From NCBI GenBank assembly GCA_024763275.1, contig JANTFT010000004.1:25774-89773 (forward strand): a stretch of DNA of 64,000 bases. Reading direction: 5' to 3'. A program made the translations under genes and the position numbers. Every line of letters begins with the position of its first letter. Position 1 is the stretch's first letter. This document shows, in pieces, positions 37,079 to 56,695 of the stretch. The notes below the pieces were generated by a model that made no database searches, had not been told where the DNA came from, and saw only the letters and a program-made list of their open reading frames with translations. Source of the stretch: Anaerolineales bacterium. GTDB lineage: Bacteria > Chloroflexota > Anaerolineae > Anaerolineales > UBA11858.

Positions 37079-37990
37079 TTATCTATTTCCAAAATCCTGC
37101 GGTTCCAGCGACATCAGGTATAGATATACCGCCCGCAGCTCCAGATCGGACATATAGCGGTAGGAGGTCCAGGGCATGTAGTCCGGGTGGAGAGCCCGGC
37201 CGTGTTTCTCCCCATCCCGGATGATGTCGATGAAGCCTTCTTCCCCCCAGCCGGGAAGACGGCTCCCCGGCCCTGGAGTCAGGTTGCCAGCCGCCGGCCA
37301 TTCGGGAGGAAAGCCGGGGATCTCACCCCCCGACATGCCCAAACCATGGCATACAGGACAGGAGAGGGACAGGTACTGCCCGTAAGCGGCTGTCAATCCG
37401 GGTTCTGGCGGGATGGGGGGAGGATCGTCGTGGGGGATAAGCTCGGCTGGCAGAAAGGTGATCTCCCTCACCAGGTTCATGGCTATGAATCCGGCCGGGG
37501 AGAGCTGGCTGGACCCCGGCTGATTATCCACTGGCTCCTGACTGCGGATGTAGGCCAGCACCGCTCCCAGATCAGCGTCGGATAGGTAATAGAATTCAGC
37601 GGAGGGCATGAACAGCAGCGGCTTGCCCCGGGGATCCAGGCCATGGCGGATGGCCCGGATCAGGTCCAGGTCGCTGCGCTCATCCCCGATCCCCCCTTCA
37701 CCGCTGGTCAGATTGGGGGTAATCACCAGGCCGACAGCGGGATTATCCAGATAGACCAGGCCCCCCAGATCTTCCCCGTGGCAGGCCTCACAGCCCCGGT
37801 AGCGGAAGATGCGCTGGCCTTCCAGCAGGCTGGAGGGGTCCTTGGGAATGGAGACCAGCCTCGACTGGACTGAGTATGTCCGGTTCAAGCGGTACCAGCC
37901 CAGGCCGTAAAGCACCAGTCCCGGAAGCAGGATCAGGCTCAACAGCCCGCCGGTGACTATTGCCAGCCATTTACGCGAGGGCTTCATCAT
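37079..37990 (-). CDS. membrane-anchored dihaem c-type cytochrome
   Basis: 303 aa. N-terminal TM and two CxxCH sites (CEACH, CPVCH). The ATG overlaps the Rieske stop (ATGA). Confidence 0.8.
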   Translation of the reverse strand: MMKPSRKWLAIVTGGLLSLILLPGLVLYGLGWYRLNRTYSVQSRLVSIPKDPSSLLEGQRIFRYRGCEACHGEDLGGLVYLDNPAVGLVITPNLTSGEGGIGDERSDLDLIRAIRHGLDPRGKPLLFMPSAEFYYLSDADLGAVLAYIRSQEPVDNQPGSSQLSPAGFIAMNLVREITFLPAELIPHDDPPPIPPEPGLTAAYGQYLSLSCPVCHGLGMSGGEIPGFPPEWPAAGNLTPGPGSRLPGWGEEGFIDIIRDGEKHGRALHPDYMPWTSYRYMSDLELRAVYLYLMSLEPQDFGNR

Positions 37991-38427
37991 CCCTCTCCTT
38001 CCTGATGCAGCAACAGATTCCCTTCAGGTGTCAGCTCTACTTTCATCCGGGGCAGATCCGCGGAGGCCGGGCCTCCGGTGACCTTTCCCTCGGCTGAGAA
38101 GCTCGAGCCGTGGCAGGGACAGGAAAAACCTGTCCCGTTTTCTTCCAGGACGCAGCCCAGATGAGTGCAGACCAGGCTGTAGGCTCGATATCCCTCCCCT
38201 GTCCAGTAGATGACAGCCGGGATGTCCAGCCTGATGAGCTTTCCGTCGGGGGGGAATTCCCCGGCGGGTCCCAGATCATAGGTCCTTGTCTGGCTGGACC
38301 CTGGCGAATGGCTGAAGTAGCGGATCAGGCCAGCCAGCCCCAGCCCACCTGCCAGACCCAGGGAGACGCGGGTGAGCAGGCGTAGGAATGTCTGGCGGGA
38401 GAATTTGCGATTATGAATATCCATCAT
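37987..38427 (-). CDS. Rieske [2Fe-2S] protein
   Basis: CTHLGC and CPCHGS boxes. The start at 38427 forms an ATGA overlap with the cytochrome b stop. The N-terminus FSRQTFLRLL plus a hydrophobic stretch resembles a Tat signal/anchor. Confidence 0.85.
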   Translation of the reverse strand: MMDIHNRKFSRQTFLRLLTRVSLGLAGGLGLAGLIRYFSHSPGSSQTRTYDLGPAGEFPPDGKLIRLDIPAVIYWTGEGYRAYSLVCTHLGCVLEENGTGFSCPCHGSSFSAEGKVTGGPASADLPRMKVELTPEGNLLLHQEGEG

Positions 38428-40127
38428 GATAACCATCCCAGCAGGGTCAGCAGGAAAATCAGGGCGATTATTACCAGACCTATCAGCTGGCCAAGACGGT
38501 TTCCTTCTGGCAGCCAGATCCCCCACTCTTCCGGCGCCGCGTTGGGGAGGGCGAAGGGCAGCAGCCCCAGCAGGATCACCGCCAGCAGAGGGAGTCCAAC
38601 ACCCCACAGGAAAGGATCCCCGATCTTTAAGGTTTCCTGGATCCACAGGAAGAACCAGGGAGCACCGCTGTCCCCGGTCGGGTTGGCGCCGCTGATAAGG
38701 GGTTTGGCGAGGGGAGCGGGTGCCAGGGCGGACAGCAGCAGGAGGGCGCCGCTGGCGAGCAGCAGGGCCAGGACTTCCTGGCGGATCAAGGCGGAGCGGG
38801 GAATTCGCTCCCGGGATTCCCGGTGGGCAGGGGGCGGTGCGCTGATTCCCCCGTCCCGCCGGACCCTGAAGATATGCCAGATCGCCACTGCGGAAAAGAT
38901 CACTGTCAAACCGTAGATATGCCAGCTGTAAAAACGGATCAGCGAGGCTGCCCCGGGTCTGGCCCCACCAATCACGAAGCGGTAGAGTGAATCCCCCACC
39001 AGGGGGATGGTTTTCAGCAGGTTGGTGCCCACCACCAGGGCCCAGCGGATGCCTTCGTCCCAGCGCAGCAGGTAACCCGTGAAATCAAGCAGCAGAGCCA
39101 ACACCAGCAGGCTTAACCCCAGCAGGTAGTTGAAGCGCCGGGGCGGGGCGTAAGCTCCGGTGAGGATCACCCGCACCAGGTGGACCATCAGGGTGACCAC
39201 CAGCAGCTGGGCGGACCAGAAATGGATGCTGCGAACCAAATCCCCATTAGGAACAAGAGTGTTGATGGTCTGGATGGTGGCAGCGGCGTCTGGAGGGGAG
39301 GGCTGGTAATAGTAGCTTACCAATACTCCGGTGATCAGCAGGACCAGGCTGAAAAAGACCGCCAGGCCACCAGCGGCGAGGGTGTAGCTGAAGCGGGCCT
39401 GGTCAGCCGGGATGGTAGCAGGATGGAGGTGAAGATAAAAATTTCCCCTGTGGGGAGAGGATGCTCCTGAGAGGGAAAGGCGCCGGTATCCCGCGGCTCC
39501 CGCAAATAGCAGCAGGCTGGTGACCAGGGCCCAGGGCAGGGGTTTTTCCGGCAGGCTGGTCTTCTGGTGAACAGGGATGGCGGCGCTGTTGGTCGTTCCC
39601 AGCACGAACCCGGGGTTGCCGGCGTGGTTGAGATCCAGCAGATAGGCAGTCAGCTCCCAGGCCTGATCCTCAGACAGTGACCCGGTGGGGAAGAGCGGCA
39701 TTTTTTCGTAAATATAAGTCCCCAGTTCAAGTGCTGTGGAGAACCGGGGCAGGGCCCCTGGCCCGGCCAGAGCGGGCGCGCCGGCCGTGGGAATGACGAA
39801 ACCCTTCGGCGGGGCGTCTTCCCCGTGGCAGCCGGCCTGCCAGCAGTCCCGGTAGGCCGGCGCGAACGCTGACCGCCAGTCGGCGGTCAGGCCCTGCCCC
39901 TGGTCCCCGTGGCAGTCCTGGCACATCCCCCAATAGGCCTGGGCCCCGCTGTCTCCCTGGGAAGGCGGGTAGACAGTTGGGGGCGGGCCGGGGCGCTGGT
40001 AATGTGGTGCTGCTTGTAGGGGGGGATTTTCAGGGGAAGAGGCAGCTGCGGGTCCGGCGTAAAGCAGGACGCCTGCCAGGAACAGCACCCCCAAAATGAG
40101 TATAATTATCCGTAACCATGCGGGCAT
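38424..40127 (-). CDS. cytochrome b (b6 + subunit IV-like, fused) with N-terminal c-type haem domain
   Basis: CQDCH haem c site. Helix B H-x13-H (HFWSAQLLVVTLMVH) and helix D H-x14-H (HIYGLTVIFSAVAIWH). I placed the start at the ATG at 40127 (MPAWLR...). Confidence 0.85.
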   Translation of the reverse strand: MPAWLRIIILILGVLFLAGVLLYAGPAAASSPENPPLQAAPHYQRPGPPPTVYPPSQGDSGAQAYWGMCQDCHGDQGQGLTADWRSAFAPAYRDCWQAGCHGEDAPPKGFVIPTAGAPALAGPGALPRFSTALELGTYIYEKMPLFPTGSLSEDQAWELTAYLLDLNHAGNPGFVLGTTNSAAIPVHQKTSLPEKPLPWALVTSLLLFAGAAGYRRLSLSGASSPHRGNFYLHLHPATIPADQARFSYTLAAGGLAVFFSLVLLITGVLVSYYYQPSPPDAAATIQTINTLVPNGDLVRSIHFWSAQLLVVTLMVHLVRVILTGAYAPPRRFNYLLGLSLLVLALLLDFTGYLLRWDEGIRWALVVGTNLLKTIPLVGDSLYRFVIGGARPGAASLIRFYSWHIYGLTVIFSAVAIWHIFRVRRDGGISAPPPAHRESRERIPRSALIRQEVLALLLASGALLLLSALAPAPLAKPLISGANPTGDSGAPWFFLWIQETLKIGDPFLWGVGLPLLAVILLGLLPFALPNAAPEEWGIWLPEGNRLGQLIGLVIIALIFLLTLLGWLS

Positions 40128-40217
40128 GGTGGACCTTTTCTGAATGGCTTTCTGTGGATTATACAACAGCTTGCTGGCAATCATTCTGGGAGGCACTGAA
40201 TGGAAGGAGGGCTGTAA

Positions 40218-49033: not shown

Positions 49034-49283
49034 AATTCATAAATCCTTGATATTCATTTTTGTTCAGGTTACCAGGGGAATCAAGCAGCGTTGAAACAAA
49101 ACGGTACCGACTGCCAAGGAGTAACTAACTGATACTACCTGAAAACAGTCGTTTGTCAAGCTAAGCTGCTTCCGGGTGAGCATTACGCTGGCTCGTTTGA
49201 TCTCATGTCAGACTGGGTTTTTAGGGGAGGAAAGGCTATAATCGAGAATTACAGCCGGATTGTTTCCAGGAAGGAGAATTTTC

Positions 49284-49967
49284 ATGACTTTCTACTTTTC
49301 TTCGGATCTGATCATCAAGCTTGCTTTCGCGACCCTGCTGGGAGGTATTCTGGGTCTGGAGCGTGAAATTCACGGCCGGCCCGCCGGCCTGCGCACCCAT
49401 CTGCTGGTCAGCCTTGGCGCGGCGTCATTCATGATCATGTCTCCCCTGGTCGCCAATATGAGCCAGAGGTTCGCCGGGGACCCCGGCCGCATCGCGGCCC
49501 AAATAGTCACCGGGATTGGCTTCCTGGGTGCTGGCGCTATTGTCAAAGAGGGGATCAATATCCGGGGACTGACGACCGCCGCCTGCCTCTGGATCGCCGC
49601 CGCGATCGGTATGGCCAGCGGGGCTGGCCTTTTTACAGAGGCGTTGTTAATCTGTATCCTGGCGATTTTCGCGCTGGTTGCCCTGCCGTTCACCGAGGTG
49701 ATTTTCAAGAAACATTCCTACCGGATCCTGGAAATTGCCCTTCCTCTTGATGCGGATGTGAGTTCGATTATTGACGCGGTGAAATCCAGGAATGTGCGGG
49801 TCATCCGTTGTGATCTGGACCGTGATTACACCAGCGGAACGTTAAAGACAACCTTACTGATCCGCCTGTATCACAGGGGGGTGACTGACAAGCAGGCCCA
49901 TAAGATCATCGGAGAGATCGAGGCCCTGGACCTGTCACCCAGACAGATCGTCTGGCGACCCCGCTAA
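49284..49967 (+). CDS. MgtC/SapB-family membrane protein
   Basis: GLEREIHGRPAGLRTH signature. The ATG at 49284 follows GGAAGGAG. Confidence 0.85.
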   Translation: MTFYFSSDLIIKLAFATLLGGILGLEREIHGRPAGLRTHLLVSLGAASFMIMSPLVANMSQRFAGDPGRIAAQIVTGIGFLGAGAIVKEGINIRGLTTAACLWIAAAIGMASGAGLFTEALLICILAIFALVALPFTEVIFKKHSYRILEIALPLDADVSSIIDAVKSRNVRVIRCDLDRDYTSGTLKTTLLIRLYHRGVTDKQAHKIIGEIEALDLSPRQIVWRPR

Positions 49968-50888: not shown

Positions 50889-50999
50889 TCGTATAGGGCT
50901 GGCCCTTATCTTAGACTGCTCGCTTTTAGGGATCAATGCTTTTGGAAAGGATATACTTAAAGCTGGGAGAAGGCCAGTGGTTTTTCTATGAGGTGGAGA

Positions 51000-51800
51000 A
51001 TGCCGTATTTCAATGCTGGTGAGGTCGAACTTTATTACGAACGAACGGGGGAAGGAGAGCCGCTCTTATTGATCCATGGCTTGGGTTCCAGCAGCAGGGA
51101 TTGGGAGCTGCAGGTGCCAGATTTTGCCGGGCATTTTCAGGTGATTTGCGTGGATCTGCGCGGCCACGGCCGGTCCAGCAAACCATCCGGACCGTACAGT
51201 ATGGAGGTCTTTGCCGGGGATGTTTCCCGGCTGCTGGAAGGCCTGGGAACCGGCCCGGCTCATGCGGTCGGCATCTCGCTGGGAGGGATGGTGGCTTTCC
51301 AGCTGGCCCTTGATCATCCCCGCCAGGTGAGAAAACTGGTCATAGTCAACAGCGTGGCGGAGCTGGTCCCCCACAACCTGGCTGACCGCCTGGGCTTCTG
51401 GCAGCGCTTATTGATCGTCCGCTTGCTGGGAATGGAAAAAATGGGGCAGGTGCTGGCGGAACGCTTTCTTCCCAAGCCTGATCAGGAGGCCCTGCGTGAG
51501 GTGTTCATCCGCCGCTGGGCGGAAAACCACGTGCCCTCTTACCTGGCTTCCCTGAAAGCCGCTTACGGCTGGAGCGTGATCGGGAGGTTGGGTGAGATCC
51601 GGTCACACACCCTGGTGCTGGGATCCGATGGTGATTATTTCCCCACTTCGCAAAAAGAAGCCTATACTGCCCTGATCCCCAATGCCACCCTGACGGTTAT
51701 CAAGAACAGCCGCCACGCCCTGCCGGCGGAAAAACCTGCCGAATTCAACCGGATCGTGCTGGATTTTTTAACCGCCAGCCCCGGAGATGATCCGGGTTAG
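51000..51800 (+). CDS. alpha/beta-fold hydrolase
   Basis: LLLIHGLGSS, nucleophile elbow GISLGG, and a C-terminal His region. The ATG at 51000 follows GAGGTGGAGA. Confidence 0.85.
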   Translation: MPYFNAGEVELYYERTGEGEPLLLIHGLGSSSRDWELQVPDFAGHFQVICVDLRGHGRSSKPSGPYSMEVFAGDVSRLLEGLGTGPAHAVGISLGGMVAFQLALDHPRQVRKLVIVNSVAELVPHNLADRLGFWQRLLIVRLLGMEKMGQVLAERFLPKPDQEALREVFIRRWAENHVPSYLASLKAAYGWSVIGRLGEIRSHTLVLGSDGDYFPTSQKEAYTALIPNATLTVIKNSRHALPAEKPAEFNRIVLDFLTASPGDDPG

Positions 51801-51807
51801 TCCAGAT

Positions 51808-52503
51808 TTATATATAGACCCGTTCAATCCCCTGAATATATTTTGAGCTCCGCGTCATCCGGAAAGGGAAGCCGGAGCTGACCCGGTTCGCCCGGGTATC
51901 ATATTCCCGGTCGTATTTCAGCTCAACCACGATGCTCTGCCGGTCAGCCTGCCTGAACAGGAACTGATTGTCGATTTTATTGAGATGGTAAAAAGTCAGC
52001 CCCGCATCTACTGTAATCCTGAATGCCCGGTCAGGCGTGGCGAAATACCAGCGCAGGTAGCGGTTTACCAGCACTGGCTCGACCGCCATCAGGTAATCGG
52101 CCACCTGATGGGGCAGGTCTGAGGATTGGATCCCCTCTTTGAGGGAAGATTCCGAAAAGCCGTTCTGGAAATCGAAAGCCGGAAAGGGATAGCTTGTCTT
52201 TGTGCCCATCAGGCCTTCTTTGGTTTTGAACTCCAGCATGGAGGAGTCCACCGGCCCGAACAGCTCATGGTACCAGCGGATCCGGGCTTTTTTGCGCAGG
52301 GGTGATCCGTTGACATTGTCAGTGTAGTTCTCTAAGAGGGGAGTGTCAAAGTAGATGTTGTTGATGTAGCGGGGAGGATAGATCTCTGAGAAGAGGGCAG
52401 GATGGCGCTTGACCAGGCTGATCGCCTGTTCAGCGTCCAGCTCGTCGACGAAGAACTTCCTTTCGTAGCGGTACTCGCGCTGGGGCTCTAGTTCTGGCGC
52501 CAT
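51808..52503 (-). CDS. VTC-domain (triphosphate-tunnel, polyphosphate-polymerase-like) protein
   Basis: N-terminal REYRYERKF beta-strand motif typical of CYTH/VTC tunnel enzymes. The ATG at 52503 follows AAGGGAG. Confidence 0.75.
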   Translation of the reverse strand: MAPELEPQREYRYERKFFVDELDAEQAISLVKRHPALFSEIYPPRYINNIYFDTPLLENYTDNVNGSPLRKKARIRWYHELFGPVDSSMLEFKTKEGLMGTKTSYPFPAFDFQNGFSESSLKEGIQSSDLPHQVADYLMAVEPVLVNRYLRWYFATPDRAFRITVDAGLTFYHLNKIDNQFLFRQADRQSIVVELKYDREYDTRANRVSSGFPFRMTRSSKYIQGIERVYI

Positions 52504-52513
52504 GGGGGCTCCC

Positions 52514-53869
52514 TTACCAGACTCCCTTGTTGTCAAGGAAGGAGATCTGCAGGTCATCTGACAGGCCTTGCAGCGCAGCTTTGGCCTGTTTAAGTTGCTT
52601 CATGTCCCGGAATTCAGCCAGGAAGGAGATTTCCTGGGCCTGGCTGGTCTCGTCAAAACGGATCAGCTTCATCTGGGCGCAGTTTTCCTGGAGGGTGTCC
52701 ACGACAGACTCGAAATCGGCTTTGCCTGTTCCTGAGCTGGAGACGGTGATATGCAGGTTAAAATCAGCCTGACGCCCCCGGAAAAGGCGCAGGATGCCCA
52801 GCACCAGGATGGCCGCCGCCAGGGCGATCACCGTGATCATCCGCTGGTTGTCTCCCAGACCGATCCCGATGGCGATGGCGAAGAACAGATATGCCAGCTC
52901 CTCCGGTTCCTTGACCGCGGATCGGAAGCGCACGATTGACAGCGCTCCTACCAGGCCGAGGGAAAGAGCTACTGAGGAGCGGACCACCATGATGATGAAA
53001 GTTGTGGTCACAGTGATCAGGATGAAGTTGGCGGCGAAGCGCCTGCGGTTGGAGAGGGAAGAGCCCCAGTGCACATAGACCCGGCTGAGGATATAGGAAA
53101 GCACCGCGGATAAACCCAGGTTGATCAGCAGTGTGGTTAAGTCGGTAGGACTGACCTGAGAGGTGGTCAGCTCTGAGATCAGGTCCTGGGCGGTGATTCG
53201 CCCATCCCCGGCGGCTTCCGGAGTGGGCTCGGCCGGAGGTTCTTCCTCCACTGCTAGTGGGAGCTCCGCACCTTGAGCTGCTCTCTCCTCAGGAGGAGTC
53301 AGTCCGCTGATCACCAGGTTGTCCAAGGAAGCGGTCCCTTCCCCCTCCACCCAGAAGCCGATCCCTGATCCGCGCAGGACGGTTTCCTCCTGAGTGGTGA
53401 TCAGCACGCTGTCGCCGATGGAGATCTGCTGGCCGTCGGTGTTCAGTTTAACTGTGACTGTTTGCCACTCGCTGGAACTCCCCTCCCAGGGGCTTTCTTG
53501 CAGCAGGGTGGGGGGGCCTTCCCCTCCTTTCTGCAGCACCACCCCCTCATCATGGATGATCAGGGCGTATTCACCGTCGGGACTGATAGCGTAGCGGACG
53601 ATGATCGCCCCGGGTCCGGAGCGCTTGAAATCAAAGGAGATCGATGTGCCTGGAGGTCCTGTAAAGCGGACCGCGAAATTATCGGGAGGTACCTGCAGGG
53701 CTCCTTCTGAGACGAAAACACCTTCGGAGTGGTCCCACCCCTGGAGGGACTCGTTGTCGAAGCTCTCTCTGATCTCATCTGCCTGGGCTGAAACCAGCTG
53801 CGTAGAGCTGGTGGCTACCAGCAGGATTCCGATGATCGCCGCCAGATATTTGATGCGATTTACTTTCAT
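52514..53869 (-). CDS. DUF4956-domain membrane protein with N-terminal extracytoplasmic lectin-like domain
   Basis: Signal peptide. A roughly 200-aa beta-rich domain (FDNESLQGWDHSEG...). DUF4956 core SLGLVGALSIVRFRSAVKEPEELAYLFFAIAIGIGLG. The ATG at 53869 follows GGAGGAG. Confidence 0.75.
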   Translation of the reverse strand: MKVNRIKYLAAIIGILLVATSSTQLVSAQADEIRESFDNESLQGWDHSEGVFVSEGALQVPPDNFAVRFTGPPGTSISFDFKRSGPGAIIVRYAISPDGEYALIIHDEGVVLQKGGEGPPTLLQESPWEGSSSEWQTVTVKLNTDGQQISIGDSVLITTQEETVLRGSGIGFWVEGEGTASLDNLVISGLTPPEERAAQGAELPLAVEEEPPAEPTPEAAGDGRITAQDLISELTTSQVSPTDLTTLLINLGLSAVLSYILSRVYVHWGSSLSNRRRFAANFILITVTTTFIIMVVRSSVALSLGLVGALSIVRFRSAVKEPEELAYLFFAIAIGIGLGDNQRMITVIALAAAILVLGILRLFRGRQADFNLHITVSSSGTGKADFESVVDTLQENCAQMKLIRFDETSQAQEISFLAEFRDMKQLKQAKAALQGLSDDLQISFLDNKGVW

Positions 53870-53903
53870 AAAGCTCCTCCGGGTTGTAAATGACATGAGC
53901 AGG

Positions 53904-55574
53904 TTACTTGATACCTGAATCCAGAACCCCGGAAACGTAATCCGCTCTTCTGGAGGTCAGTTGGATCAGCTCGTTCACTGCCTGGTCGAATTCTTCCAGG
54001 GAAGCCACCGCATCCTCCCCGAAGAACATCTTGTCTCCCTGACCGGCCTGGAGATGAGGGCGCAGCATCCTGGCCCAGCGGCGGGCAATTCCGCCGATAT
54101 TCCGGGCATTGAAATAATTGCGGACCAGCAGATCCACATAAGCCAGATAGGTCTGCCGGTATCTGGGGACCTCAAAGACCTTGGTAAACAGGGGCCGGTA
54201 TTGAAGCGGTCCCAGGCTGGTCTCTGTCCCGAACAGGGGATAGTTGTAATCGCCCCCGAAATGCCCCCAGGAGTTCCCCATATCCCAGGCGATCCATTCA
54301 AAGCGATCACTGCCCGGATTATGGTAGAGATAGTAGTTGTTGCCGGTATCGGGATACTGATCGAAGTTCAGGGTCAGGAAGATCACTGCCAGGTAGCGGA
54401 GGTAAGAATCGACGTTGAAGACCTCTTCCAGGGCAGTTGCGAACTCTTCCGGAGAATCATACTCGGCGCCGTCGATCACGTAACAGAGATCGATGATATC
54501 CTGGTAATCCGCCTTTGAGGGATCCTTGTACATCAGGGCATAAGCCAGTTCCCCGCGTGGTTTGGGGTAGTTTTCGATATCCTCACCGTAATAAGCCAGA
54601 TCGGCAGCGCCCTCCTCGAACCAGGCATCCGCCTTGTAGAGATTTCCCCGATCGTTGGCGGGTCCGAAGCGGTTGGCAAGGTATTTTGTATCCGGCCGCT
54701 CGACCAGGGTATAGACGCCCAGGAAGTCAGCCGGGGCGCTCTCATCCACGATATCCACCCAGACCTCCACGAAAGAGGTGAATCCTCCGTTCGCGCCCGC
54801 AAAGCGCATCATATCGTAAGCCATCTTTTCGCGCAGCAGCGAGATATCGCCGAAATTGTTGTGCAGGAGCAGCATCTTCAGGTTCTTGTATTCCTGCTCC
54901 GAGTGATAGGCGTTGAGATCGATCTTCAGGGGGATCTTGGCAGTAAAACCGATGGTTGAGTTTCCCTTGGGGCTGATGCCGACCTCCTGGAATTCCTCCC
55001 CGAAGATCAGGACGTCGGCTGGGACGAGCCGTTTTGCCATTGGGTCAGCCATCATTTTGTCCCAGTTGGATTGAGTCATCTGGATTTCGATTTTCCGGAT
55101 CCGCTGGTTGTCAAAGACCGTCCAGTAGTCCACGCTGCTGGAAGCGGGGTGTTTCACGGTCACAGAGGTGTGGGCGATAGCGGTTTGGCCCCGGGCATCC
55201 GTAGCCCGTACGCTGATGATGTAGGTCCTGGGTTTGGTGTAGACATAACTGGCGTAACCGCCATTTTCCGTGGCGTCGGTTTCAAAAGAGCCATTCCCGT
55301 CCAGGTCCCATTCCAGACGGGAGATCTCGCTCCCCCCGCCGCCGGTTCCGTAAGCGCTGAAGAAGACCTTGAGTGGTGCCCAGCCGCGGTTGGGCATGGC
55401 GTAGGCGTAGGCTTCCAGATCCACCTGGAGAGACTCTTCCGGGAGGAGCGGGCTCCTCGCCTGGGCGATACCCCACAGGGCAGCAGACAGGCAGAACAGG
55501 GTGATCAGGACAACTTCCAGCTTGCCGATCAGATCTTTCTGCAGGAATTCCTGCCAGGGATTGGATGAGGACAT
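53904..55574 (-). CDS. CotH-family kinase-like protein with N-terminal anchor and PKD-like domain
   Basis: 556 aa. N-terminal hydrophobic anchor, a PKD-like segment (LEWDLDGNGSFETD...YIISVRATD), and a CotH core (LLLHNNFGDISLLREKMAYDMMRFAG). Confidence 0.85.
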   Translation of the reverse strand: MSSSNPWQEFLQKDLIGKLEVVLITLFCLSAALWGIAQARSPLLPEESLQVDLEAYAYAMPNRGWAPLKVFFSAYGTGGGGSEISRLEWDLDGNGSFETDATENGGYASYVYTKPRTYIISVRATDARGQTAIAHTSVTVKHPASSSVDYWTVFDNQRIRKIEIQMTQSNWDKMMADPMAKRLVPADVLIFGEEFQEVGISPKGNSTIGFTAKIPLKIDLNAYHSEQEYKNLKMLLLHNNFGDISLLREKMAYDMMRFAGANGGFTSFVEVWVDIVDESAPADFLGVYTLVERPDTKYLANRFGPANDRGNLYKADAWFEEGAADLAYYGEDIENYPKPRGELAYALMYKDPSKADYQDIIDLCYVIDGAEYDSPEEFATALEEVFNVDSYLRYLAVIFLTLNFDQYPDTGNNYYLYHNPGSDRFEWIAWDMGNSWGHFGGDYNYPLFGTETSLGPLQYRPLFTKVFEVPRYRQTYLAYVDLLVRNYFNARNIGGIARRWARMLRPHLQAGQGDKMFFGEDAVASLEEFDQAVNELIQLTSRRADYVSGVLDSGIK

Positions 55575-55885
55575 ATTTAAGAAGCTGCTGCTGGTGGGTC
55601 AGTTCTATCTGGAATTAGTTTCATTATACATAGAAAACATCTAAAATCCGGCCTGCACAAGGGACCTGCCCCCTGAGAAGGGGGTGATTTGACCGGGATA
55701 TTTCGAGAGCTTAGAAGGTCCTTAGAGATGGGAACGCTCTTGAGGATATTTATAGTGCCAGGGACATTTGGGATGGTTGGCCTTTTGACTCCGTAGTGGG
55801 AGATTCCGCCAGATCAGCAAATCTGCTGCCTCTCAATGCTTCTTCCATTTGGATAGATTCAGGATATTTATCATATACAGCTCTG

Positions 55886-55915
55886 TTGACAGGAGCCAAA
55901 CAATCATATATGATT
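55886..55915 (+). promoter_or_regulatory. sigma70-type promoter with overlapping 14-bp perfect palindrome (candidate GntR operator)
   Basis: TTGACA (55886-55891), a 17-nt spacer, then TATGAT (55909-55914). The palindrome AATCATATATGATT lies at 55902-55915. A related half-site, TATCATATA, lies at about 55869. Confidence 0.55.
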
Positions 55916-55972
55916 AAGTCATAGGACGTCCAACCTCTAAGATTATCAGGTTTAGATCAGAACAGGGCCAGC

Positions 55973-56695
55973 ATGGCTATCTCCACAGATTCGCGATTGA
56001 ATCAGGTAAAAGCGTACATGCTCAGGTATATTGTTCAGAACAACCTCAAGAGCAATGACCAGCTGCCCTCAGAGGCAGCGACTGCCAAGGAGCTTGGAGT
56101 AAGCCGCAACACCCTCCGGGAAGCCTATATCTCTCTGGAAAATGAGGGGATCATTGTCAGAAGGCACGGGATCGGCACCTTTGTGGCCAACCCGCCTCTC
56201 ATTCAGGACTCCTTGAACGATTTTTCCCCCTTTGCCCAGATCATCCAGAGTGTCGGCTACACCCCTGATTTTAAAACCCTGTCTGTGGAACTGGTCGCTC
56301 CCGAGCCGGAGGTGAGCGAGGTGTTGAAATTGAAAAGCAGCAACCAGGTCCGCTATATCAGCCGGCTGGTTTATGCTGACCGCAAACCGGTTATTTACGT
56401 TGAGGATTTCATTCCCCCGGACGTAGATACTCAGATTGGATCCTGGGATGACTTTAAAGGCAATATGGTGGAGGTGCTGTCTTCCGCTCTCCACACCCCC
56501 TTGCACCAGATCCAGTCCCGTATCAGAGCCGGGTCGCTTTCTTCCGAGGTGAGCCATTATCTGGATCTGCCGGTGGGGGCGCCGGTATTAAGTGTCCGGT
56601 CAACTATCTTCAACAAGGAAAATCGCCCGGTCACTTTCAGCAAGCTGTGCTTTGACTCAGATGTGATCGAATTGAATATAGTCCGTATGATTTGA
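55973..56695 (+). CDS. GntR-family (HutC/UTRA subfamily) transcriptional regulator
   Basis: 240 aa. wHTH LPSEAATAKELGVSRNTLREAYISLENEGIIVRRHGIGTFV and a C-terminal UTRA-like domain. Confidence 0.9.
   Translation: MAISTDSRLNQVKAYMLRYIVQNNLKSNDQLPSEAATAKELGVSRNTLREAYISLENEGIIVRRHGIGTFVANPPLIQDSLNDFSPFAQIIQSVGYTPDFKTLSVELVAPEPEVSEVLKLKSSNQVRYISRLVYADRKPVIYVEDFIPPDVDTQIGSWDDFKGNMVEVLSSALHTPLHQIQSRIRAGSLSSEVSHYLDLPVGAPVLSVRSTIFNKENRPVTFSKLCFDSDVIELNIVRMI

Follow-up and report, generated by a model that had tools for sequence, protein, structure and literature searches.

What might a CotH-family atypical kinase, a DUF4956 membrane protein and a VTC-type tunnel protein do together? The question is raised by three neighboring genes in the window, which is the whole stretch of 64,000 nucleotides analyzed here. 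The combination itself is not new, being already known as a set of accessory genes of pel operons and of NELoc-2 with no shown function; we describe here its organization, its distribution and its possible role.

Organization of the Locus

The sequence-only reading had described three packed minus-strand genes with gaps of 34 and 10 nt, each with its own Shine-Dalgarno (SD) sequence. The six-frame ORF list bears out the layout, with three co-directional minus-strand ORFs encoding CotH (55574-53904, 556 aa), DUF4956 (53869-52514) and VTC (52503-51808), SD-preceded starts for the last two, and intergenic gaps of 34 nt (CotH/DUF4956) and 10 nt (DUF4956/VTC). The DUF4956 ORF may start at 53896 or 53869, and the ATG at 53869, with GGAGGA upstream, gives a protein of 451 aa. 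Similarly, the VTC ORF may start at 52557 or 52503, and the ATG at 52503, with AGGGAG upstream, gives 231 aa. Nothing SD-like was found upstream of the cotH ATG (...cagcagcttcttaaatATG), so that the claim of one SD per gene stands for two of the three genes only. Homologues of all three proteins number in the hundreds, the closest with E-values down to 1e-110 and beyond, and the three ORFs are therefore real genes and not chance ORFs.

The region between cotH and a divergent GntR-family gene (55575..55972, no strand assigned) is the probable promoter region of the operon. It contains two weak sigma-70-like matches on the minus strand (55932-55903 and 55899-55870), and no Rfam element was found in it. 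The flanks of the trio encode an alpha/beta hydrolase, an MgtC protein, a DEAD helicase, and GntR with a sugar ABC transporter. The bona fide MgtC gene lies at 49260-49967, 2.5 kb from the trio. No polysaccharide genes adjoin the trio in the window, and inspection of the flanks revealed no pel-type genes, DUF4832 glycoside hydrolase, glycosyltransferase or deacetylase. The trio is a self-contained three-gene operon of an Anaerolineae-type Chloroflexota bacterium.

The CotH Protein

The cotH-like gene (53904..55574, minus strand, as are all protein features given below) encodes an N-terminal membrane anchor, a PKD-like domain and a CotH atypical-kinase domain. The kinase domain (aa 200-547, 53934..54977) matched Pfam CotH (PF08757) at 1.4e-55 (189.5 bits vs a cut-off of 23.8) and was aligned to B. 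cereus CotH, the structure of which (5jd9) the protein matched with an E-value of 4e-13. Homologues in Anaerolineae metagenome-assembled genomes share 50-79% identity with it. The catalytic D405 (NFD), N412/N413 and the metal-binding D431 (WD) line up with the B. cereus CotH motifs NFD, HN and WD and are invariant across 47 homologues. In B. subtilis CotH, the inactivating positions are D228, the catalytic Asp, and D251, the metal-binding Asp (PMC7821199). The kept Asp/Asn/Asp set of the kinase predicts that the ectodomain is catalytically intact.

The predicted signal-anchor or TM helix (about aa 15-38, 55461..55532) would leave the N-terminus inside and the C-terminus outside, based on hydropathy and flank charge. 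A single N-terminal TM helix was present in 46 of the 47 homologues, with a charge of +1.2 on the N-flank and -0.9 on the C-flank (hydropathy and charge count). The kinase domain is thus predicted outside the membrane and not in the cytoplasm, in agreement with the extracytoplasmic location that had been read from the sequence. A possible AQA|RS cleavage site is also visible. The PKD-like beta-sandwich (about aa 59-141, 55152..55400), another feature of the initial reading, was recovered through matches to ColH PKD structures (E 0.002-0.005); Pfam PKD itself stayed sub-threshold in the window protein (17.7 bits vs a cut-off of 23.5, E 0.0036), and for most homologues PKD is listed in the precomputed Pfam annotation. 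CotH proteins of other loci carry beta-helix, LTD or CHB_HEX domains. No coat genes were found near the window cotH, the neighbors of which are the DUF4956 and VTC genes.

The DUF4956 Membrane Protein

The DUF4956 gene (52514..53869) encodes a protein that matched Pfam DUF4956 (PF16316) at 1.6e-14 (54.4 bits vs a cut-off of 30.6), a family with 4989 representatives at E<=1e-3 after 50% clustering. A polytopic protein with a secreted lectin-like N-terminal domain had been proposed, and this description held. After a signal peptide (aa 1-30, site VSAQA|DE) comes a concanavalin-like or CBM66-like domain (aa 31-190, 53300..53779), modeled by AlphaFold2 (AF2) with pLDDT >90, for which the best Foldseek match was CBM66 (4b1m, 1.4e-8), along with levanase/GH16-type sandwiches. 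Homologues carry PF06439 at the N-terminus together with PF16316; among the best 150 DUF4956 representatives listed, the form with a signal peptide and a CBM66-like ectodomain was confined to the top 17 or so.

Then follows a five-helix membrane core (aa 241-363, 52781..53149), assigned from invariant columns and helix/loop charges and containing the near-invariant SSVALSLGLVGALSIVRFRSAVKEPEEL. In the homologue alignment the invariant columns span 268-346, and a core of 30 residues is almost invariant from Methanosarcina to Anaerolineae, and also in Saprospiraceae, Planctomycetota and others. In the predicted topology, five TM helices separate an external N-terminal domain from an internal C-terminal domain, and the inner loops are positively charged. 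The cytoplasmic C-terminal domain (aa 370-446, 52532..52762) has the beta-alpha-beta-beta-alpha-beta secondary structure of an ACT-like domain in the AF2 model (pLDDT around 90), and 4 of 64 family members gave Pfam ACT_4 matches. Only the TM part of the AF2 monomer was of low confidence (pLDDT 40-65, no pore modeled), as would be expected for an obligate oligomer.

The DUF4956 protein appears distantly MgtC-like. The window protein scored 14 bits against Pfam MgtC (PF02308), below the cut-off of 31.4, and sub-threshold matches were obtained for 40 of 64 relatives (best E 0.0028). Also, hhalign of the DUF4956 family with MgtC gave an E-value of 0.0015 and a probability of 17% over 165 colinear columns, the MgtC C-domain included.

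The VTC-Like Protein

The third gene (51808..52503) encodes a soluble Vtc4-like triphosphate-tunnel protein, in line with the sequence-only reading. The protein has the motif YRYERKF at aa 11-17, and no TM segment was found in it. Pfam VTC (PF09359) was matched at 3.8e-25 (89.2 bits vs a cut-off of 23) over profile positions 2-234 of 235. The AF2 model has the eight-stranded tunnel fold (pLDDT 89.5), and Foldseek ranks 1-13 were all tunnel domains of yeast Vtc4, Vtc2 and Vtc3 (E 1.5e-10 to 1.5e-8, TMq 0.53-0.64), Vtc4 being the best match at 1.5e-10 and generic TTM/CYTH hydrolases following at 1e-7 or weaker. Identity to Vtc4 is 16-18%.

The catalytic residues were compared with those listed for Vtc4 (bioRxiv 2023.01.27.525886). 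K16, R74, R76, K93, Y149 and R151 correspond to Vtc4 K200, R264, R266, K281, Y359 and R361 in an HMM alignment to 3g3q, and are invariant in 48 homologues. The other three of the nine fit by motif position only: the invariant E194 (VELKY) and S220-K221 (SSKY) would be the counterparts of E426 and S457-K458, a dedicated C-terminal profile search having given no Vtc4 alignment. The expectation that the tunnel residues are present is thus borne out by alignment for six of them, the motifs giving candidate counterparts for the rest. In Vtc4, E426 binds Mn2+ and K458 separates the active Vtc4 from the inactive Vtc2/3 (bioRxiv 2023.01.27.525886). In its modeled fold the protein is nearest to the active yeast polymerase Vtc4, and we regard it as a putative polyphosphate (polyP) polymerase. 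No Pfam match to SPX or VTC1 (DUF202) was found in any of the three proteins.

Distribution of the Trio

A gene-neighborhood census showed that the three families co-occur far beyond chance. All three genes were present in 66 of 80 VTC-seeded loci (species genomes), always on one strand and in three different gene orders; 13 of the remaining loci were cut by contig ends, and a single one was without CotH. The hosts belong to Chloroflexota, Actinomycetota, Syntrophomonadaceae, Planctomycetota, Gemmatimonadota, Saprospiraceae, Verrucomicrobiota, Krumholzibacteriia and Methanosarcina. At least nine phylum-level groups and one archaeon keep the trio, and all flanking genes differ. No conserved fourth gene was detected in the VTC-seeded loci, where no further family occurred in more than 10 loci. 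The same pattern appeared from DUF4956 seeds: among the five of six look-ups with a readable neighbor gene, CotH was adjacent in 4, VTC in 4 and both in 3. Elsewhere, the trio often neighbors polysaccharide genes (Wzy, Wzx, Wzz, polysaccharide deacetylase, glycosyltransferase). CotH/DUF4956/VTC is a stand-alone module recurring across many bacterial phyla and one archaeon.

Published accounts place the trio among the accessory genes of pel operons in Gram-positive bacteria (bioRxiv 768473 = PMC7112168; bioRxiv 2024.04.20.589940), with examples in Streptococcus, Clostridia and Bifidobacterium (SIR_1594, SIR_1593 and SIR_1592 in S. intermedius), and also within C. perfringens NELoc-2 (PMC2879425, PMC11677781). 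According to one pel preprint, the trio does not occur outside such operons, a statement contradicted by the window and by 66 other loci. Single deletions in S. intermedius gave no Pel or aggregation phenotype (pel-operon papers), the authors proposed that polyP stays cytoplasmic, and CDD puts the TM domain of the streptococcal DUF4956 homologue in the MgtC family. The claim that no function has been shown for the bacterial combination agrees with the literature searched, in which no demonstrated function was found; the combination had nevertheless been described before, in pel and NELoc-2.

Possible Role of the Trio

The most likely role, a plausible one that we put forward tentatively, is that the trio makes a phosphate polymer, exports it and uses it to phosphorylate surface material. 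Judging by fold and residues, the VTC-like tunnel enzyme, a soluble protein, would build polyP from ATP on the inner side of the membrane. It could bind an MgtC-like DUF4956 oligomer through the latter's cytoplasmic ACT-like domain and its basic loops (LSNRRR, RFRSAVK, RLFRGR), and this oligomer would pass the chain outside; operon linkage, translational coupling, topology and the extreme conservation of the core suggest this step. The membrane-anchored CotH ectodomain would then take phosphoryl groups from the exported polymer, or couple that polymer to a glycan or protein of the cell surface, a step suggested solely by the linkage and by the absence of another phosphoryl donor outside the cell. 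The CBM66-like, PKD and beta-helix/LTD/CHB_HEX domains, together with the frequent polysaccharide-gene neighbors in other genomes, suggest that the target is a polysaccharide of the cell envelope. In Firmicutes, the linkage to pel was counted toward the same glycan theme.

Several observations count against this scheme. DUF4956 shares no homology with the Vtc1-type channel, the active site of CotH is still that of a canonical ATP kinase, and the window lacks polysaccharide genes adjoining the trio. Some DUF4956-CotH pairs (L086-L088, L091) lack a VTC gene over the nearest 6 kb or so, so that CotH does not strictly need an adjacent polymerase. We know of no CotH that uses polyP. Also, MgtC proteins, the nearest relatives of DUF4956, are known as regulators and not as channels, and the cytoplasmic polyP favored by the S. 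intermedius authors and the lack of phenotype in their deletions point the same way.

Among other explanations, it is possible, if rather doubtful, that polyP stays cytoplasmic, that DUF4956 is an MgtC-related regulator or anchor whose ACT-like and lectin-like domains sense a ligand, and that CotH is a separate, co-regulated surface kinase or adhesin, for example of an envelope or biofilm programme. The MgtC family placement by CDD, the sub-threshold and hhalign similarity to MgtC, and the lack of a Vtc1-type channel or SPX domain in the trio agree with such a scheme. However, it leaves unexplained why, in 66 of 80 loci, the other two genes are tied to one for a surface kinase, in three orders and across domains of life, why the DUF4956 membrane core is near-invariant and flanked by basic loops, and why an extracellular kinase is paired with a phosphate-polymer enzyme. 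The VTC-less pairs, the loci with two DUF4956 copies (L056, L090) and the ATP-type site kept in CotH would fit a DUF4956 protein that serves as the dedicated partner of CotH, either as a conduit for ATP or another nucleotide donor or as a membrane dock or activator, with an optional VTC protein supplying or buffering the donor in some lineages. We consider this unlikely, as VTC adjoins in every complete VTC-seeded locus and in 4 of 5 readable DUF4956-seeded look-ups, the VTC-less pairs were judged within about 6 kb and may have a VTC gene elsewhere in their genomes, and there is no evidence of nucleotide movement by MgtC-like proteins.

More improbable still is that the VTC-like protein is no polymerase but a hydrolase or cyclase of the triphosphate-tunnel type (tripolyphosphatase, NTPase or nucleotide cyclase), with a product or substrate that acts as a signal via the DUF4956 ACT-like domain. 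TTM proteins have diverse functions, the significant structural matches also included YgiF, CYTH cyclases and thiamine triphosphatases, and the identity to Vtc4 is low. Against this, the yeast Vtc proteins fill the top 13 structural matches, two to three orders of magnitude ahead of other TTMs, the Pfam VTC model is matched end to end, and all triphosphate-contact residues of Vtc4 have counterparts, including (by motif position) the Lys missing from the inactive Vtc2/3. That three unrelated genes lie side by side by chance or mere synteny has a negligible probability: the census rejects it through the three gene orders, the at least nine phylum-level groups plus one archaeon, and the different flanking genes.

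Comparison with Known Systems

The window trio shares with the pel accessory set and NELoc-2 the same three Pfam families, contiguous and co-directional. The resemblance to the pel set extends to a secreted or surface-exposed CotH, a soluble VTC-like protein that has catalytic residues, and a DUF4956 protein in which a TM domain is joined to a C-terminal ACT-like domain. Unlike that set, the window has no pelDEA(DA)FG, DUF4832 hydrolase, glycosyltransferase or deacetylase nearby and a Chloroflexota host, its DUF4956 adds the signal peptide and CBM66-like ectodomain, and its CotH carries PKD and not FN3. The spore-coat Ser kinase CotH of Bacillus (5jd9), whose targets in the mother cell are CotB and CotG, belongs to the same fold family and conserves the Asn as well as the catalytic and metal-binding Asp residues, whereas the window protein has an N-terminal anchor and PKD, is predicted extracytoplasmic, comes from a lineage that shows no sporulation context, and is partnered by polyP-related genes and not by CotB or CotG. 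MgtC, the Salmonella/Mycobacterium virulence factor (PF02308), also has a five-helix N-terminal membrane domain and a cytoplasmic ACT-like C-domain, with weak colinear similarity; DUF4956 differs in falling below the Pfam threshold, in its own near-invariant core motif and in its genomic partners.

The trio differs from the yeast VTC complex (Vtc4/Vtc3 or Vtc2/Vtc1) in several ways: it lacks SPX and Vtc1/DUF202 TM domains, its catalytic subunit is a separate soluble protein, its MgtC-like membrane partner DUF4956 bears no relation to Vtc1, the proposed destination is the cell exterior and not the vacuole, and the third component is an ecto-kinase. Nevertheless, a tunnel domain of the Vtc4 type that shares its triphosphate-binding residues is common to both systems, as is a genetic link of this domain to a small membrane protein of several helices. 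This link suggests that synthesis may be coupled to membrane transit. We propose that, in the trio, a surface kinase could be coupled to a prokaryotic analogue of the yeast VTC polyphosphate synthase-translocase.

Gene organization and genomic context

The three genes of the trio follow one another on the minus strand: cotH (ORF 1, 55574-53904, 556 aa, from six-frame ORFs and the sequence), the DUF4956 gene (ORF 2, 53869-52514, 451 aa) and the VTC gene (ORF 3, 52503-51808, 231 aa). Using the starts preceded by a Shine-Dalgarno (SD) sequence, we recovered the co-directional arrangement and the gaps of 34 and 10 nt described in the sequence-only reading. Its claim of a separate SD for every gene is borne out for the DUF4956 gene (GGAGGA before the ATG, with an in-frame ATG 27 nt upstream) and for the VTC gene (AGGGAG before the ATG, with an in-frame ATG 54 nt upstream), but not for cotH, where no SD-like sequence precedes the ATG. 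The family assignments were confirmed by Pfam (CotH, 1.4e-55; DUF4956, 1.6e-14; VTC, 3.8e-25), the VTC match covering about the whole profile length, and none of the three proteins had a match in NCBIfam. Their best homologues all came from Anaerolineae/Anaerolineales metagenome-assembled genomes, on common contigs, which places the host among the Chloroflexota.

The flanking genes in the window encode an alpha/beta hydrolase, MgtC, a DEAD helicase, and GntR with a sugar ABC transporter, all unrelated to the trio, and the annotation of 20 flanking genes ruled out that the trio is part of a pel or other polysaccharide operon there. The 398 bp region between cotH and the divergent GntR-family gene (55973-56695) contained only weak promoter-like matches; promoter and terminator scans of the locus gave weak consensus matches only, and an Rfam scan of the trio locus found nothing. 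Only 7 nt (51798-51810) separate the end of the VTC gene from that of the convergent alpha/beta-hydrolase gene (50988-51800), so any terminator must be inside the opposing coding sequence; the sole terminator-like hairpin seen, at 51729-51710, is weak. At a distance of about 2.5 kb from the DUF4956 gene there is a true MgtC-family gene (49260-49967, plus strand, Pfam 1.4e-36). Also, a 590-aa ORF (38424-40196, minus strand) joins a cytochrome c domain to cytochrome b (b/b6-type) domains and adjoins a separate cytochrome c gene (37079-37990, minus strand), an unusual fused bc-type arrangement.

Distribution of the trio

The VTC alignment was scanned against one genome per GTDB species, which gave 220 relatives, and the best 80 of these 220 loci were analyzed with HMMs built from the three alignments, divergent cases being checked with Pfam. 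The order CotH-DUF4956-VTC was found in 57 of the 80 loci, DUF4956-CotH-VTC in 8 (two with extra CotH paralogues) and DUF4956-VTC-CotH in 1. Another 13 were incomplete, with contig ends at most 2.6 kb from the expected place of the missing gene, and a single Bacteroidales contig of 4.6 kb showed DUF4956-VTC-DUF4956 without CotH. In the complete loci the three genes always shared one strand (66/66), and clustering of all flanking genes revealed no fourth conserved family in more than 10 loci. With 66 of 80 VTC-seeded loci complete, the three families co-occur well above chance.

A second census, seeded with diverse DUF4956 representatives, recovered DUF4956-VTC (on a short contig), DUF4956-CotH-x-VTC, CotH-DUF4956-VTC and DUF4956-CotH-DUF4956-VTC, as well as two cases of DUF4956 and CotH that lacked VTC over some 6 kb around them (L086-L088, 6001-9321; L091, 3442-6724; census loci are numbered and have their own coordinates); one further look-up was an uninformative 1.7 kb contig. 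The L086 pair lies downstream of DAGK_prokar and YbjQ genes, and the L091 pair beside WecG, epimerase and GT4 genes. Taken together, the two censuses indicate that the trio is a portable, self-contained module in which DUF4956 is linked to CotH no less tightly than to VTC. Among the homologues listed there was no VTC-DUF4956, CotH-DUF4956 or CotH-VTC fusion protein, and therefore no Rosetta-stone support.

Outside Chloroflexota the trio often adjoins envelope-polysaccharide genes (Wzy, Wzx, Wzz/BY-kinase, polysaccharide deacetylase, WecG, GT4 glycosyltransferases), and phosphonate-biosynthesis genes are also among its neighbours. For example, in a planctomycetotal locus (L048, 6848-9285) a PEP mutase fused to a cytidylyltransferase and a phosphonopyruvate decarboxylase come directly after the trio; these phosphonate-decoration genes are a second phosphorus-containing surface modification adjoining the module. 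In Saprospiraceae (L073, L080 8740-15810), three more CotH-like paralogues of about 550-870 aa stand in tandem downstream of the trio, and L073 has Wzy and Wzx-type genes upstream. A complete archaeal trio (DUF4956-CotH-VTC; L065, 4564-8696) is carried by the chromosome of Methanosarcina sp. Mfa9, beside a polysaccharide deacetylase and a beta-helix/dockerin surface protein. The near-identity of its DUF4956 core sequence to the bacterial ones suggests inter-domain transfer.

Features of the three proteins

The AlphaFold2 model of the VTC-like protein was confident (pLDDT 89.5), and yeast tunnel domains (Vtc4, Vtc2, Vtc3) took the first 13 places among its PDB matches (E 1.5e-10 to 1.5e-8); YgiF, CYTH cyclases and thiamine triphosphatase ranked lower. 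A profile search was needed at the sequence level, single-sequence phmmer against PDB sequences giving nothing significant. Mutagenesis has defined nine critical VTC residues, K200, R264, R266, K281, Y359, R361, E426, S457 and K458 (bioRxiv 2023.01.27.525886), K458 being the only one absent from the inactive Vtc2/3 (bioRxiv 2023.01.27.525886; cryo-EM study). Profile alignment to 3g3q equated K16, R74, R76, K93, Y149 and R151, all invariant, with the first six. Invariant E194 (VELKY) and S220-K221 (SSKY) occupy the expected places of E426, S457 and K458 by motif-based mapping rather than residue-level alignment; a C-terminal profile (76 residues) aimed at these three positions returned spurious IFI16 matches only. 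Six of the nine tunnel catalytic residues are kept by alignment, and the other three appear to be kept by motif. The protein has no TM segment, SPX domain or Vtc1-type domain.

The DUF4956 protein begins with a Sec-type signal peptide (VSAQA|DE), followed by a 160-residue beta-sandwich modelled with pLDDT > 90. The best matches of this sandwich were CBM66 and related glycan-binding/glycoside-hydrolase sandwiches, and homologues score as PF06439, which bears out the N-terminal secreted lectin-like domain of the sequence-only reading. Then come a disordered acidic/Pro linker, five hydrophobic helices and a last domain of beta-alpha-beta-beta-alpha-beta type (pLDDT about 90). Loop charges (LSNRRR, RFRSAVK, RLFRGR) are consistent with an N-out, C-in topology. 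The membrane core is near-invariant within Anaerolineae, and the core sequence VKSSLALSLGLVGALSIVRFRAAIKEPEEL is almost unchanged in homologues from Methanosarcina, Saprospiraceae, Gemmatimonadota, Planctomycetota, Verrucomicrobiota and Bacteroidales, which are about 40-45% identical elsewhere. The AF2 monomer was poor in the membrane part alone (pLDDT 40-65), which would fit an obligate oligomer. In some loci two DUF4956 paralogues flank VTC or CotH (L056, 1466-3711; L090, 3746-8524), which hints at a hetero-oligomeric membrane component. The family comprises 4989 representatives at 50% clustering (E<=1e-3), mostly of about 225 aa; among the best 150 of these, only the top 17 or so were lectin-fused (about 450 aa). 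Similarity to MgtC was consistent, yet sub-threshold: against the MgtC of the window, hhalign gave a probability of 3.6% with the full-length DUF4956 alignment, and of 17% (E 0.0015, 165 colinear columns) with a broader one. The CDD assignment of a streptococcal DUF4956 homologue to MgtC agrees with this (bioRxiv 2024.04.20.589940).

The solved structure of B. cereus CotH aligned to the window CotH (E 4e-13). B. subtilis CotH is inactivated by mutation at D228 or D251 (PMC7821199), which correspond in our alignment to D405 (NFD) and D431 (WD), the catalytic-loop Asn being N412/N413; these positions are invariant among 47 homologues. A single N-terminal hydrophobic helix, found in 46 of the 47 homologues, has a mean net charge of +1.2 on its N-flank and -0.9 on its C-flank across the set, and is followed by a PKD-like sandwich. 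These features together place the kinase domain, by prediction, outside the cytoplasmic membrane, in agreement with the extracytoplasmic location proposed before. Extracellular accessory domains vary by lineage (PKD, pectate-lyase-like beta-helix, or LTD with CHB_HEX). The CotH proteins of about 870 aa with a beta-helix, from DUF4956-CotH-VTC loci, consistently carry His for the canonical catalytic Asp of NFD (L065 5263-7986, L073 5318-7924, L063 5247-7910, L048 3458-6052, L054, L067, L070, L076), and keep the downstream Asn and a metal-binding Asp or Glu. Judging from these substitutions, this clade may have an altered chemistry, e.g., a phospho-His intermediate.

Proposed mechanism and alternatives

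The trio is most economically read as a prokaryotic analogue of the yeast VTC synthase-translocase that has an unrelated membrane partner and is coupled to an ecto-kinase. The analysis directly supports the linkage of the genes, the predicted topology, the resemblance of the VTC-like protein to Vtc4 in fold and catalytic residues, the intactness of the active site of CotH and the presence of glycan-type ectodomains. The VTC-like protein would synthesize polyphosphate (polyP), which would pass through the DUF4956 protein and be used by CotH; we hold this full chain tentatively, with the balance somewhat against it. Its general form seems to us rather doubtful: a portable machine of bacteria and some archaea in which inorganic polyP, made by a Vtc4-like polymerase, is extruded across the cytoplasmic membrane through DUF4956 as an MgtC-like channel, and the surface CotH takes phosphoryl from it or grafts it onto envelope polysaccharide.

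Against the full chain, the MgtC relatives have a known role as regulators rather than as channels, and deletions of the streptococcal genes are silent: single deletions in S. intermedius gave no Pel or aggregation phenotype, and the same preprint suggests that polyP remains cytoplasmic (bioRxiv 2024.04.20.589940). A model of cytoplasmic polyP with a regulator is unlikely. The DUF4956-CotH pairs without an adjacent VTC gene also speak against the full chain, and a DUF4956-CotH partnership with VTC as an option is, beside the many complete loci, quite improbable. That the VTC-like protein is a non-polymerase TTM we consider very unlikely, given the ranking of its structural matches.

Extracellular CotH-family proteins are widespread, in cellulosomes, on streptococcal surfaces, among Mucorales invasins and in Fe-oxidiser stalk loci. 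To our knowledge, their phosphoryl donor outside the cell has had no explanation to date. Bacterial polyP is ascribed to PPK1 and PPK2. If true, the proposed synthase-translocase would answer how prokaryotic ecto-kinases get energy and reveal a non-PPK route to extracellular polyP; such VTC-type, membrane-coupled delivery to the surface would add a new branch to the phosphate biology of prokaryotes. The consequences would extend to biofilm matrices (cationic Pel with anionic polyP), to virulence loci, for instance NELoc-2 of C. perfringens, and to the part that Anaerolineae play in phosphorus cycling in sediments and wastewater sludge. The near-invariant DUF4956 core is a precise target for mutagenesis.

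Comparison with known systems

Our literature search found no paper demonstrating a function of the trio (the original CotH kinase paper, PMC4922149, lay outside it), as the sequence-only reading had supposed. The annotation in that reading was accurate and its interpretation is partly supported: no bioinformatic check that it named (co-occurrence, outside topology, tunnel residues, published function) spoke against it, but the mechanism is a proposal and the gene combination is already in print and not new. In streptococci, clostridia and bifidobacteria, genes for cotH, a "poly-phosphate polymerase", DUF4956 and DUF4832 directly adjoin pelDEA(DA)FG and are described as accessory to it (bioRxiv 768473; PMC7112168), and NELoc-2 has two VTC-domain genes and cotH beside a glycosyltransferase and a deacetylase (PMC2879425, PMC11677781). 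The 2024 preprint states that it did not find the trio outside pel operons (bioRxiv 2024.04.20.589940). New here are the stand-alone Chloroflexota form, the breadth of the module (three gene orders, and one archaeon among the carriers), the near-invariance of the DUF4956 core and the lectin-fused variant. Because it stands alone in this window, the module cannot be an accessory of Pel as such, and this shifts the direction of its study. The window trio is a variant of a known module, and its models are much like those of SIR_1594, SIR_1593 and SIR_1592 of S. intermedius (bioRxiv 2024.04.20.589940). Compared with the yeast VTC synthase-translocase, it would be a prokaryotic analogue, but with a non-homologous membrane partner and an ecto-kinase.
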